Shown here: one piece after another, positions 59,979 to 64,000 of the stretch
Numbering within the stretch: position 1 is the first letter of the stretch
Layout: the number at the start of each line of letters is the position of its first letter
Assembly: GCA_965116495.1 (NCBI GenBank)
Contig: OZ220696.1
Span: 2,016,001-2,080,000 of the forward strand
Source of the DNA: Gammaproteobacteria bacterium
GTDB taxonomy: Bacteria > Pseudomonadota > Gammaproteobacteria > Eutrophobiales > Eutrophobiaceae
Direction: 5' to 3'
DNA: 64,000 nt
Notes under the pieces: generated by a model
What the model was told of the DNA's origin: nothing
Database searches by the model: none
Seen by the model: only the letters and a program-made list of their open reading frames with translations
Made by a program: the position numbers and the translations under genes

Positions 59979-61505
59979 TCATAAACCCGATTCTTCTTTC
60001 AAACTTACATCCCCACTCATCAATTTTGGCAACAATGCGTCACGCAGGTTTTCAAGTATCTGAATTTGGGATTGATTTGAAATCATTTTTTCAAATAATG
60101 GAGTTACTTCAATTTCAAATTCCTGAATAACATTTTCTTGCGGTAACTTTACCGAATGTTCTTTAAAGGTGTCAGTCGTAATTGTATCAAAAACACTACC
60201 ATAGGCAGCTGACTGCAACCCATCAATTGAATGATCAACAAGCAAATAAGTAAAAAAATAAGAAGCTCCGAATTTTGGCTTTATCCCGTAATTTGATTGG
60301 CTGAATGCCATAGGCCCTGACACGATACCGTACTTTCCTACAGTGCCTCTTGCTGAAATGATAGTGGAATGTTTGGGGATTAATTTTGCTGAACTGTTTT
60401 TCAATCCCTCTACACTGATGGATTTTTCAGCAGAGGGGATTATGCCTTTGTGATTCACTGCAACGTCTTTGCCGGACACCCAGCCAACTTCCCCACCCCA
60501 ATACTCTGGAACAGACGTGCTTGGCGTGCCTCCTCCAACTAATTCAATGACATCATAAAGACTGAACACATCCCACTTTTCATTTTTATCTTCCGCAAAC
60601 CACTTTCTGAACAATGCCTGTGCCATGGCTTCCAGGGTTCTGTTCTGGCGGTGGAGCAGGTCTATTTTGTCGTCGAGGCTGGACAGGACTTCGGCGATGG
60701 CTTTTTGTTCGGGGAGTGGTGGCAGGAGAAATTGATATTCTTTAATTGCCGTAGGTGATGTATGTTTTATTGATGTTCCGCTAGCTGCGCCTACTACAAA
60801 CCAATGATAATCAGTGGTTCTTAATAACCAATAAATAAAATCCTGGTTTACAGTGCCTAATTCAAATTGCAATAATCCTATTCGTTGATTATGTAAGTAT
60901 GTTTTTCCAGTTTTGCTTTGGGGTACTTTTGCGGAGTAGCCAAGAGTATCCCCGTTTTTGCTCAGATCAGTCATCGTCACTATGACGTCATCTGCCTTCA
61001 AAATGTAATTTTGCGGAACTTGTCCGGTGAAATATTTTAGTTTCGATGACTTAAAACCACCACCTATTTTGAAATTGCCAGGAGTAACTAAAATTTTGTC
61101 ATTTTCTTGATCAGTAATAAATTGTCCTTTAAACGCATATCCATGTTTGACCTCTATCAAATCCCCCAACCTCACCTCCCTCCATCCCTCCGGCTGCCTC
61201 ATCTCCTCCTGCACCACCACATACTTCTCCCTGATCTTCTCCCTGAAACTCTCCGGTATGGCTTCCCAGTCCATAACGTCCACTGAGATCAGCAAATCAC
61301 TTTCTTCCAGATCTTCCTTGAGGTCATAAATCTCCATTGGAGTACAGTCGAATACGGCCAGGTCCAGGTCGGAGGTTTCTCTGGCTTTCCAGGTGACGCG
61401 GGAGCCGTAGGCCCAGACGGTTTTGTTAGGGATATGTTGTTTGAGAATGGCGTGGAGCAGGTCGAGTTGTTCCTGGTCCAGATCTATGAGTTTCTCTTTA
61501 CTCAT
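59979..61505 (-). CDS. hsdS: Minimal nucleotidyltransferase (MNT) - type I specificity subunit HsdS fusion
   Basis: aa 1-100 carry GSRVTWKARETSDLD; then PEGW..LGD TRD1, LPPLPEQKAIA spacer, GGGTPST TRD2, LRDALLPKLMSG end. Confidence 0.92.
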   Translation of the reverse strand: MSKEKLIDLDQEQLDLLHAILKQHIPNKTVWAYGSRVTWKARETSDLDLAVFDCTPMEIYDLKEDLEESDLLISVDVMDWEAIPESFREKIREKYVVVQEEMRQPEGWREVRLGDLIEVKHGYAFKGQFITDQENDKILVTPGNFKIGGGFKSSKLKYFTGQVPQNYILKADDVIVTMTDLSKNGDTLGYSAKVPQSKTGKTYLHNQRIGLLQFELGTVNQDFIYWLLRTTDYHWFVVGAASGTSIKHTSPTAIKEYQFLLPPLPEQKAIAEVLSSLDDKIDLLHRQNRTLEAMAQALFRKWFAEDKNEKWDVFSLYDVIELVGGGTPSTSVPEYWGGEVGWVSGKDVAVNHKGIIPSAEKSISVEGLKNSSAKLIPKHSTIISARGTVGKYGIVSGPMAFSQSNYGIKPKFGASYFFTYLLVDHSIDGLQSAAYGSVFDTITTDTFKEHSVKLPQENVIQEFEIEVTPLFEKMISNQSQIQILENLRDALLPKLMSGDVSLKEESGL

Positions 61506-61924
61506 TCTTCGTTGAGCATGGTTTCATAGATTTCTTCGGTATCCCGGATGAAACCTCCTACTTTGTCCAAGGCGGCTATGGCCTTTTCCATGCTGTAATC
61601 GTGAGCTGCGTCATTCCTGATCTTATTGTACTGAACCAGTCGCTTATGCACGTCTTTTTCGAAAAGCAAGTCTTCAAAAGCAGCACGGAAAATTGGGATT
61701 GGTGAGTTTCTCAGTTCAACCTTGCCATTTTCATCTTGCAGGTATTTCTTTATTTGCTTCCACAAGGCGTCATAGCAAATCTCGAAGCATTTAATGACGG
61801 AATTTTTCACGGCTCTCTGGTTGACTTCAGATAAGCCTTGCTCATCCAAGGTTGAATAACTTCCGTACTGTTCCTTTAGCTCATTGAGCGATTTCTCCAG
61901 TTTTTCGTAATTGATCCCGGTCAT
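61502..61924 (-). CDS. HEPN toxin (HI0074-type nucleotidyltransferase substrate-binding family)
   Basis: IKCFEICY..LWK..K, RNDAAHDY (RX4HXY); ATGA overlaps on both sides. Confidence 0.9.
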   Translation of the reverse strand: MTGINYEKLEKSLNELKEQYGSYSTLDEQGLSEVNQRAVKNSVIKCFEICYDALWKQIKKYLQDENGKVELRNSPIPIFRAAFEDLLFEKDVHKRLVQYNKIRNDAAHDYSMEKAIAALDKVGGFIRDTEEIYETMLNEE

Positions 61925-63462
61925 GATGTTTCCTCCCATTGCACCTTCTCCAGGTTCTGCAAAATTCTCTTGTTCAACCGTTCTTCTTCAACAAGCTGTG
62001 TCTCGAGCTCCGTCTTCAACTCCTTAAACCTCGCCCCAAAGTCAAAATCATCTTCCTCCTCGGGCAAGCCGACGTAACGGCCGGGGCTCAGCACATAGTC
62101 CAGTTCCCGGATTTTCTCTATGGGTGTTGCGTGGCAGAAACCGGCGACGTCCTGGTAGTTGCCGTCCTTATTGCGCCACTGGTGGTAGGTGTCCGCAATT
62201 TTTCCTGTATCTTCAGCGGAAAATACCCGGGTGCGGCGGTTGATTAAATGCCCCAGGTCGCCGGCGTCTATGAACAGGATTTCACCGGCACGGTTGCGTT
62301 CGCCGTTATAGCCTTGCCGTTTGCCGGAGATGAACCACAGGCAGGCGGGTATCTGCGTATTGAGGAACAGTTTTGCCGGCAGGTTAACGATACAGTCCAC
62401 CAAACCGGCCTCTACGATGTTTTTGCGGATGACGTCCTCGTTGGAGGATTTGGAAGTGAGCGATCCTTTTGACAGCACGAAACCGGCCACGCCGCGGGGC
62501 GCCAGGTGGTGGATGAAGTGCTGCACCCAGGCAAAGTTGGCATTGCCTGGGGGTGGTGTGCCGTATCTCCAGCGACCATCGCCTGTTAGTTGCCGGCCGC
62601 TCCAGTCGCTGTCGTTGAATGGCGGATTGGCGAGGATGAAGTCTGCCTTGAGGTCGGGATGGACATCGTGCAGGAATGAGCCTTCCTTGTTCCACTTGAC
62701 CTGGGAGCCGTCTATATTGCGGATAGCCAAATTCATGCGGCACAGGCGGTAGGTGGTTTCATTGCTTTCCTGGCCGTAGATGGAAATGTCGTCGATTTTT
62801 CCCTGGTGGTTTTCCACGAATTTCTCGCTCATCACGAACATGCCGCCGCTGCCGCAGCAGGGGTCGAACACCCTGCCTGAGTAGGGTTCTATCATTTCCA
62901 CCAGCAGTTTCACGATGGAACTCGGGGTGTAGAACTGGCCGCCTTTCTTGCCTTCAGCCAGGGCGAATTCACCCAGGAAATACTCATACACCCTGCCGAG
63001 CACGTCTTTTGACTGTGCGCTTTGCTCAGCCAGGGCGATGTTGCTGATCAGATCGATCAGTTCCCCCAGGCTGGCTGAGGCCACGTTCATCCTGGCGAAT
63101 ACCCTGGGCAGGATGCCTTTCAGGGTTTGATTGTCCTTTTCTATCAGTTCCATCGCTTTATCCAGGATTTGACCGACGCTGGGTTGTTTCGCCTGTGCGC
63201 AGATGCGATTCCACCTGGCCTCCGGCGGTACCCAGAAAATGTTTTCTCCGACGTACTCGTCCGGGTCTTCCGGGTCGGCGAACTCGATGTTTGACAGTTC
63301 CTCGTAGCGGGTGAGGAATGAGTCCGAGATGTATTTGAGGAAGATCAGGCCGAGGACGATGTGTTTGTACTGGGCCGCGTCGATGTTTTTGCGCAGTTTA
63401 TCCGCGGTTTTGAACAGTTGGGCTTCCAGTCTTTCTGGTCCGGTGGAGTGGTTCTTTGCCAT
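61921..63462 (-). CDS. hsdM: Type I R-M methyltransferase (m6A)
   Basis: LGLIFLKYISD, GQFYTP, DPCCGSGGMF, ANPPFN. Confidence 0.97.
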   Translation of the reverse strand: MAKNHSTGPERLEAQLFKTADKLRKNIDAAQYKHIVLGLIFLKYISDSFLTRYEELSNIEFADPEDPDEYVGENIFWVPPEARWNRICAQAKQPSVGQILDKAMELIEKDNQTLKGILPRVFARMNVASASLGELIDLISNIALAEQSAQSKDVLGRVYEYFLGEFALAEGKKGGQFYTPSSIVKLLVEMIEPYSGRVFDPCCGSGGMFVMSEKFVENHQGKIDDISIYGQESNETTYRLCRMNLAIRNIDGSQVKWNKEGSFLHDVHPDLKADFILANPPFNDSDWSGRQLTGDGRWRYGTPPPGNANFAWVQHFIHHLAPRGVAGFVLSKGSLTSKSSNEDVIRKNIVEAGLVDCIVNLPAKLFLNTQIPACLWFISGKRQGYNGERNRAGEILFIDAGDLGHLINRRTRVFSAEDTGKIADTYHQWRNKDGNYQDVAGFCHATPIEKIRELDYVLSPGRYVGLPEEEDDFDFGARFKELKTELETQLVEEERLNKRILQNLEKVQWEETS

Positions 63463-63506
63463 GGTGTCAGATTATACTCCTTGTTGGTATAAAGATGGCT
63501 TATCCA

Positions 63507-63570
63507 GGAGATTCCTGCTTGCGCAGGAATGGTAGTCTCCTTTATGTATTTCTGCTTGGACAGGAATGGT
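63507..63570. repeat. REP-like palindrome pair
   Basis: gattcctgcttgcgcaggaatg and atttctgcttggacaggaatg. Confidence 0.65.
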
Positions 63571-63580
63571 GGTCTACTTA

Positions 63581-64000
63581 TTATGTTGTTCCGGTACTCC
63601 ATTCATCCGCCAGCAGCTCGGTTTGCCGTAGGATGTTCTCTGTAGCCAGCTTTTGCTGGTCGGGCGGATAGCCGTATTCCCGCAACAGGCGTCTCACGGT
63701 TGTCCTGAGTTTCGCCCGTGCGCTTTCTTTGATGGTCCAGTCAATCGATATGTTTTGTTTTACACGTTGCACCAGCACTTGGGCCAGGGAGCGTAAGGTA
63801 TCATCACCCATGACCTCCTTTGCACTCTCGTTGAGTATCAGGCTGTCATAAAACGCGACTTCATCATCCGACAAGCCCATGTCGGCCACTTTATCGTCCG
63901 ACACTTTTATCTCTTTGGCAAGCTGTATCAGTTCCTCAATCACCTGCGCAGTAGTCAGCAGATTGTTCCGGTATTTCCTGATGGCGGCTTCCAGCATCTC
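63581..64000 (-). CDS. hsdR: Type I restriction subunit, C-terminal part (5' end beyond window)
   Basis: VIEELI.LA, GLS.DE.AFYD, IDW...ESARAKLR, YGYPPD (DUF3387-type tail). Confidence 0.92.
   Translation of the reverse strand, partial: EMLEAAIRKYRNNLLTTAQVIEELIQLAKEIKVSDDKVADMGLSDDEVAFYDSLILNESAKEVMGDDTLRSLAQVLVQRVKQNISIDWTIKESARAKLRTTVRRLLREYGYPPDQQKLATENILRQTELLADEWSTGTT

Follow-up and report, generated by a model that had tools for sequence, protein, structure and literature searches.

We analyzed a 64,000-nucleotide stretch of DNA from a gammaproteobacterium (assembly GCA_965116495.1, contig OZ220696.1, positions 2,016,001 to 2,080,000; "the window" hereafter), which carries a type I restriction-modification (R-M) operon combined with a HEPN/MNT toxin-antitoxin (TA) pair whose predicted antitoxin, MNT, is fused to the specificity subunit HsdS. 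All genes of the operon lie on the minus strand in the order hsdR-hsdM-HEPN-[MNT::HsdS], with ATGA overlaps between hsdM and HEPN (61921-61924) and between HEPN and the fusion gene (61502-61505), just as an earlier note on this DNA had described. The 3' end of hsdR, encoding the restriction subunit (PF11867 and PADLOC REase_I), occupies 63581..64000; its complete frame of 1,070 amino acids (locus L001 in our collection) extends past the window to window-equivalent position 66793 and carries the nuclease and DEAH motor motifs of HsdR (PD..ELK, GSGKS, DEAH, and QAIARVNR). A gap of 118 bp without overlap, in which two copies, one of them imperfect, of a palindromic repeat are found (63511..63579, no strand; repeat family D5), separates hsdR from hsdM (61921..63462), a 513-residue N6-adenine methyltransferase (PF02384 and PF12161) with motifs I and IV (DPCCGSG at residue 200 and NPPF at residue 279). 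The HEPN gene (61502..61924), the sole PF08780 copy in the host genome, encodes a predicted RNase toxin of the HI0074/NTase_sub_bind family, with 140 amino acids when read from the ATG at 61924 or 145 when read from an alternative in-frame ATG at 61939. Its RX4HXY motif (RNDAAHDY, residues 103-110, with R103, H108, and Y110) lies at 61595..61618, and Y110 is the predicted acceptor of adenosine monophosphate (AMP).

The MNT::HsdS fusion gene (59979..61505) is a stop-free frame of 508 amino acids. Its MNT domain (residues 1-101, 61203..61505), of the HI0073 family and a predicted adenylyltransferase antitoxin, contains the GSX10DXD motif (G34, S35, D46, and D48; residues 34-48, GSRVTWKARETSDLD) at 61362..61406 and a third aspartate, D76, at 61278-61280. 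A short linker beginning with Met102 (61185..61202) leads into HsdS, which consists of a first target recognition domain (TRD1, approximately 60732..61160) of a type common to fused and plain HsdS proteins, a central conserved coiled coil (approximately 60573..60731; model helix 264-305; 79-87% identity across relatives), TRD2 (approximately 60141..60572), and a C-terminal conserved helix (approximately 60006..60140; model helix 457-497). The S subunit thus has the two TRDs and two conserved helices of a type I system. Five further full-length HsdS-like frames are present in the host genome, none of them with an MNT domain.

The families that the earlier note had read from the letters, including both motifs, were upheld by Pfam, by profile searches, and by predicted folds. 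Hidden Markov model scanning of the 508-residue protein detected the nucleotidyltransferase domain over residues 19-98, as both Polbeta (PF18765; 42.3 bits, cut-off 26.9) and NTP_transf_2 (PF01909; 22.7 bits, cut-off 21), and Methylase_S in two stretches. MNT matches HI0073 (PDB 1no5) with a profile E value of 1.9e-30 and, by Foldseek, with a template modeling (TM) score of 0.91 to the target, a root mean square deviation of 1.0 Å, and 46% identity; the model of the whole fusion, which has a predicted local distance difference test score (pLDDT) of 91.1, resembles HsdS structures as well. The HEPN protein matches NTase_sub_bind (PF08780) with 62 bits (cut-off 31.8), and its model (pLDDT 89.5) has the fold of HI0074 (1jog, TM 0.77) and of a further HEPN protein (8xeh, TM 0.79), with solved HepT toxins among its matches. 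D76 aligns with a conserved aspartate of HI0073 and, by alignment, would correspond to D71, the third acidic metal ligand of Shewanella MntA (PMC7641770). A PF08780 HEPN with RX4HXY adjoining a PF01909-clan MNT with GSX10DXD and the third aspartate is what characterizes Class I HepT/MntA, to whose HI0074/HI0073 branch we assign the predicted pair. The NCBIfam cut-offs were not reached (MntA, 41.5 versus 60; HepT, 19.4 versus 60; TIGR01987 HI0074, 50.2 versus 55.8). By Pfam, the 140-residue HEPN protein is a single domain without an ABC-ATPase, which sets it apart from PrrC/RloC.

Sequencing or assembly error was rejected as a source of the fusion. All 107 matches to residues 1-104, from independent assemblies, carry both Polbeta and Methylase_S (proteins of 279-889 amino acids, a length range that excludes unfused forms), and 105 of them keep GSX10DXD; a fused copy also stands on a RefSeq plasmid. 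We also considered whether HsdS could be made separately. In this allele, codon 102 is an ATG (61202-61200) that follows a purine-rich stretch and is a possible internal hsdS start. However, since the linker contains a methionine in only 5 of 96 close fusions, this start is not conserved, and as the DNA alignment has no conserved start either, we rejected it as a general feature.

To survey the architecture, fused loci were drawn from 20 GTDB loci, 80 of 558 metagenome loci, and additional genome-search loci, giving 79 distinct fused genes (one locus had been entered twice, as L020 and L132). The upstream HEPN, whose frequency the earlier note had singled out for a survey, is directly adjacent in 74 of the 77 assessable loci and missing from three, while two more loci had too little upstream DNA. 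RX4HXY is present in 71 of these 74 HEPN proteins, H108 and Y110 are invariant across the 43 that were aligned, and all 79 fused loci retain GS and DXD, one with GSW instead of GSR. A profile search among longer proteins returned 1,872 matches among 7,994 scored, of which we looked at the best 120. Because the query contained the junction, the homologue searches lean toward fused forms; a less biased sample was provided by 400 genomes drawn evenly across the phylum. The MNT clade occurs in 59 of these (94 matches, of which 89 were examined and 5 partial ones omitted), and the MNT::HsdS fusion in 12 (13 cases, 12 of them with HEPN upstream). The closest loci come from, among others, "Ca. Spongiihabitans," Poriferihabitaceae, Leptospiria, Salinispira, and Bdellovibrionales, and the module therefore crosses phyla. 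Within the genus its presence is patchy, with 7 of 22 genomes carrying this clade. From culture, a fused example is found on plasmid pZMOB01 of Zymomonas mobilis ATCC 10988, where ZMOB_RS09975 is the HEPN gene and ZMOB_RS10260 the fusion, and a split one, with an ATGA overlap of MNT and hsdS, on an Acetobacter oryzoeni plasmid. HsdSp of Z. mobilis ZM4, of which a deletion has been published (PMC8432527), is a plain 420-residue subunit from an operon without HEPN and is not informative here.

Next, we asked with which neighbors MNT is fused. When hsdS comes next, the phylum sample shows a fused MNT in 13 of 15 cases, as opposed to none of the 30 with another close, co-oriented open reading frame (ORF) next, although ORFs were called mechanically and some of the 30 may not be genes; in one instance it is fused to HsdM, 39 MNTs have no close downstream ORF, and one had too little DNA. 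The earlier note had named homologues that are nearly always split as a finding that would speak against its reading. Over all loci, the MNT|hsdS junction is fused in 89 of 96, while the HEPN|MNT junction is split in 207 of 207 and the hsdM|HEPN junction in 67 of 67. Seen from the HsdS side, 11 of the 120 nearest HsdS proteins by central region carry MNT, and none of the 120 carries any other Pfam passenger.

The approximately unbiased (AU) test rejected the fused modules as a single clade (p-AU 3.45e-6; 26 rows, 15 versus 11), and at least 19 changes between the fused and the unfused state are required among 106 dereplicated modules in a quick tree, in which gain and loss are not separable. 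A single ancient fusion was therefore discarded, with the reservation that cassette swapping can mimic repeated events. Another observation was that a duplicate of the hsdM 3' tail follows the unfused MNT in four clear matches among 124 unfused MNTs scanned (L069:893-990, L086, L015:5414, and L017:1357), as expected if the HEPN-MNT pair inserts at the hsdM end. From these sequence traces we infer that the pair probably entered as a cassette at the hsdM 3' end and that a small deletion or frameshift later joined MNT to hsdS.

The module also occurs in several unusual forms. One member of the MNT clade is fused to a DUF1016/YhcG nuclease protein (P0250), and a subgroup of HsdS proteins carries two MNT domains in tandem at the front (P0108-P0114, P0122, P0127-P0130, P0132, and L162); the exact motif is often absent from one of the two, and one member of the subgroup is from Acidimicrobiaceae. 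One locus (L252:2194-5883, G153:C222) reads HEPN - MNT::HsdM - HEPN - MNT::HsdS, the latter a remnant without either recognition domain; there is no hsdR within the 13 kb examined. In L185 and P0209, MNT is joined to the HsdS coiled coils with TRD1 deleted; these and the other TRD-less fusion, L197, may represent decay or metagenome mis-joins and are not used as support. The hsdM-hsdS slot can hold stacked HEPN genes or HEPN-MNT pairs before the fused gene (L008:5084-6004, L015:4667-6004, L149, L150, L154, and L183), with two or three HEPN genes ahead of a single fusion in some loci, and it also collects Fic, ORF6N, and insertion sequence (IS) cargo.

Both halves of the fusion look functional in their sequences. 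Purifying selection acts on MNT, and the recognition domains are shuffled: the MNT ratio of nonsynonymous to synonymous substitution rates (dN/dS) is 0.17-0.21 against the window gene for five close relatives with unsaturated dS and has a median of 0.16 over 17 pairs (HsdM, median 0.08), and the recognition domains of relatives are just 17-34% identical unless they share a type. In 78 fusions we counted 22 types of TRD1 and 17 of TRD2 in 59 different pairings, and 47 TRD1s and 58 TRD2s of the fusions belong to types that are also seen in plain HsdS; the fused gene therefore joins ordinary specificity exchange with MNT fixed at its front. The shuffling also lends indirect support to a system that would methylate and restrict a bipartite site. 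A short linker joins the two halves in 198 of 221 fusions. The toxin itself is exchangeable, as is evident in L003, where HsdM is 90%, MNT 87%, and HEPN 46% identical with sharp borders, and together with the stacked HEPN genes this suggests a permissive antitoxin, judged by sequence. In two loci without an intact HEPN, MNT carries D76G (L017) or a nonsense codon (L005); with these on one side, L144 on the other, and L122 showing the glutamate usual in its subclade, decay of MNT upon HEPN loss is faintly hinted at.

A predicted complex of two HEPN copies with the fusion lends weak support to an interaction, with a score of 0.41 versus 0.01 for the best control, a pLDDT of at least 84 for the partners, and at least 80% of contacts agreeing between runs. 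In the calibration, 116 of 157 solved complexes attained this mark, as did 2 of 215 mismatches; at scores of 0.60 or below, however, only 18 of the 157 solved complexes did so, together with both of the mismatches. Because solved HEPN-MNT complexes exist, the score may reflect likeness to them.

Taken together, we see about an even chance that MNT-HsdS is a two-function S subunit that AMPylates the neighboring RNase and that the dose of antitoxin follows HsdS. MntA-type enzymes place AMP on the tyrosine of RX4HXY and thereby block RNase activity (PMC7641770). The fusion protein would accordingly set the DNA target of the R-M enzyme and, on Tyr110, keep the predicted RNase silent, and if one protein is both the S subunit and the HEPN AMPylator, antitoxin supply would track the S subunit. 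Selection may have favored the fusion for stabilizing a labile MNT and tying its dose to HsdS. The trigger would be a shortfall in modification, rather than an allosteric release of modified toxin: newly made HEPN would go unmodified when S-MNT is degraded, remains unassembled, or runs short of ATP, giving a backup RNase behind the R-M system. Several published observations bear on these steps: fusion protects another MNT from Lon (PMC13000451), HEPN activation upon low ATP or MNT degradation has been proposed (PMC11586414), most HsdS subunits are Lon-sensitive in Mycoplasma (PMC7737663), and an HsdM fused ahead of HsdS remains active (PMC6158711). We infer that toxin silencing is coupled to R-M state, and we favor coupling through protein supply because the mark is covalent with no known remover, while a fusion can alter the amount and lifetime of the antitoxin. 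It is tempting to generalize further to a repeatedly invented guard, in which the S subunit writes an "off" mark and attack on or collapse of the R-M system leaves fresh toxin unmodified and aborts infection, with many origins on HsdS, one on HsdM, and an independent one on the CRISPR subunit Cmr1, but this extension is tentative and in our judgment doubtful.

A number of observations weigh against the two-function reading. Four fusions have 51-197 extra linker residues. In 13 of 135 fused proteins the HsdS C-terminus is missing and the MNT motif kept (18 had been flagged, of which 4 regex misses and 1 internal deletion were removed by eye; some of the 13 may be sequencing errors), and should such lineages survive while their HEPN is active, no assembled S subunit is needed for silencing. 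The fused MNT of L144 keeps its catalytic aspartates without an adjacent HEPN, the L187 fusion likewise has no HEPN, and 11 loci with a HEPN have E or Q at the third acidic position. The 13 fusions of the phylum sample are not independent because they come from 12 genomes, many of them related, and swaps of HEPN-MNT cassettes before an existing junction would mimic repeated fusion and inflate the count of changes. Unfused forms persist in the same hsdM-hsdS slot (7 of 96 junctions, including the Acetobacter plasmid), so fusion is not required. In addition, a direct HsdS degradation assay in Mycoplasma was negative (PMC7737663).

These points have to be weighed with other explanations of the architecture. 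The one most to be reckoned with, though unlikely, is neutral: a type VII pair hitch-hikes in the cargo slot, one small indel fuses the overlapping genes and is tolerated by both, and toxin control stays independent of R-M state. Reversal would need a stop and a new start, and TRD1 swaps crossing over within MNT would spread the junction. The unfused loci L103 and L205 indeed overlap by ATGA, MNT also fuses to HsdM, YhcG/DUF1016, and itself, and the slot gathers other cargo (Fic, ORF6N, IS, and stacked HEPN/MNT modules); the 13 of 135 proteins with broken HsdS and intact MNT, and a TA-like pair in a pneumococcal type I locus without an addiction phenotype (PMC6265443), are likewise in line with neutrality. 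It does not account well for fusion in 0 of 30 cases to other close downstream ORFs versus 13 of 15 to hsdS, for the lack of any other passenger in the 120 near HsdS relatives, or for the linker having been kept short in 198 of 221 fusions. The same preference for HsdS would suit a direct guard of the PrrC kind, in which the tethered MNT holds HEPN on the R-M complex until inhibitors of the Ocr/ArdA/Stp type release or activate it, leading to abortive infection. The operon position is that of prrC (PMC3874165), a general proposal for R-M-linked HEPNs exists (PMC3710099), and the PDB chain name Cmr1-MntA suggests an MntA fused to another immune complex. Nevertheless, we regard a direct guard as improbable: PrrC-like release fits poorly because the AMP mark is covalent and no de-AMPylase had been identified (PMC7641770), so that releasing a modified toxin would be insufficient. 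Moreover, there is no ABC-ATPase sensor domain, HEPN is freely exchanged before a near-constant MNT (as in L003, above), and long linker insertions are tolerated.

The suggestion in the earlier note that the fusion is an addiction device, preventing loss of hsdS or of the whole operon, fared worse, and we consider it very improbable. Deleting the 5' end of hsdS with HEPN kept would be expected to remove the antitoxin, and HEPN is kept upstream in 74 of 77 loci. Yet because the antitoxin is N-terminal, lesions beyond about residue 101 spare it, as they have in the 13 of 135 proteins that lost the HsdS end and still keep the MNT motif; in addition, fusions without a TRD exist (L185, L197, and P0209), only 7 of 22 genomes in the genus carry this clade, the locus has decayed in L005, and losing both genes leaves just modified toxin. 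We would be equally surprised if the tethered MNT had a second target, nucleotidylating an R-M subunit, bound DNA, or a phage protein, with HEPN silencing as only part of its job. Such a role would make sense of L144, whose fusion keeps its catalytic residues without an adjacent HEPN, of the tandem MNT-MNT-HsdS forms, and of the one MNT::HsdM fusion, but it sits badly with the adjacent HEPN in 74 of 77 loci and with the decay of MNT in two loci, L017 and L005, that lack an intact HEPN.

The surroundings of the operon vary. A low-GC ORF of 184 amino acids (window 59388-59942, minus strand), 36 bp after hsdS, has no Pfam, NCBIfam, PADLOC, or PHROG match, and the gene 3' of hsdS differs in nearly every related locus. 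Farther on (57437-58772, minus strand), a 273-residue gene of no known family is followed by a PIN-domain gene, possibly a further TA or defence pair; in L009, too, a close relative of the 273-residue gene (9296-10108) lies downstream of this operon. A VapB-type antitoxin gene (PF09957; 57122-57337, plus strand) sits at the low-GC island's edge. The palindrome ATTCC-N10-GGAAT, which we take to be REP-like, occurs in the window at 63511-63579, 28141-28160, and 38980-39031 and has 304 matches over both genome strands, corresponding to about 152 sites. Outside the window, about eight degenerate 23-bp tandem units (L001:14134-14327) are located upstream of an AAA_14/DUF4143 gene, which itself precedes hsdR. 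Scans for promoters and terminators were not clearly above shuffled sequences (16 versus 11.6 ± 3.1 and 15 versus 13.1 ± 3.3). The HEPN protein had no match in 50,697 phage records and only a weak, unnamed match in PHROGs.

The MNT::HsdS architecture is thus real and recurrent, apparently undescribed, and built from two known systems. What triggers HepT/MntA systems physiologically is an open question (PMC7641770), and the view of R-M-linked HEPNs as backup defences, a proposal of PMC3710099, rests mainly on PrrC among HEPN RNases embedded in R-M operons; both become directly testable with the variants that occur in nature (fused, split, toxin-less, and TRD-less) and with the Z. mobilis plasmid copy. 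If the coupling is true, it would be a covalent-mark guard for R-M systems; if it is not, the locus would be a clear-cut example of a neutral ratchet toward fusion, and the annotation of many "subunit S" records could be corrected. The architecture is already present, unremarked, in Pfam annotations and in the PADLOC Specificity_I model PDLC03138, positions 2-99 of whose 485 match the MNT domain (E 1.3e-19); it therefore already stands within a defence database, where the model is labeled only "Type I specificity subunit," without a HEPN model match or a link to TA systems. A literature search, mainly of open papers, brought up no text mentioning an MNT-HsdS fusion, although supplementary architecture tables may list it. 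Work on R-M-embedded defence genes (bioRxiv 10.1101/2024.01.29.577857; PMC3632139; PMC3710099) shares with our locus the hsdM-hsdS cargo slot and the backup-toxin hypothesis, and the accessible text of these three papers does not mention an antitoxin fused to HsdS. In Cmr1-MntA (PDB 9z7q, 9z7v, and 9z7x), for which the literature search gave no paper, MntA is, by chain name and alignment, likewise fused to a defence-complex subunit, but there it lies at the C-terminus of a CRISPR type III-B subunit (9z7q_I), whereas the MNT of the HsdS fusion is N-terminal. The fused MNT-HEPN protein FhepTA (PMC13000451) also has an MNT with a C-terminal partner, and MNT is stabilized by the fusion; there the toxin itself is the partner, while in our locus HsdS takes that place and the toxin is a protein of its own. 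With Class I HepT/MntA (PMC7641770; PDB 1jog and 1no5) the locus shares a PF08780 HEPN with RX4HXY beside an MNT with GSX10DXD, as well as matching folds, but here the antitoxin is the N-terminal domain of HsdS, and the toxin gene precedes the antitoxin, although HEPN-MNT pairs usually have MNT on the 5' side (PMC3710099). With PrrC of EcoprrI it shares a HEPN-type RNase gene inside a type I R-M operon (PMC3874165); PrrC, however, is an ABC-ATPase-HEPN protein held latent noncovalently, in contrast to the bare 140-residue HEPN found here together with a predicted modifying enzyme that is fused to the S subunit.

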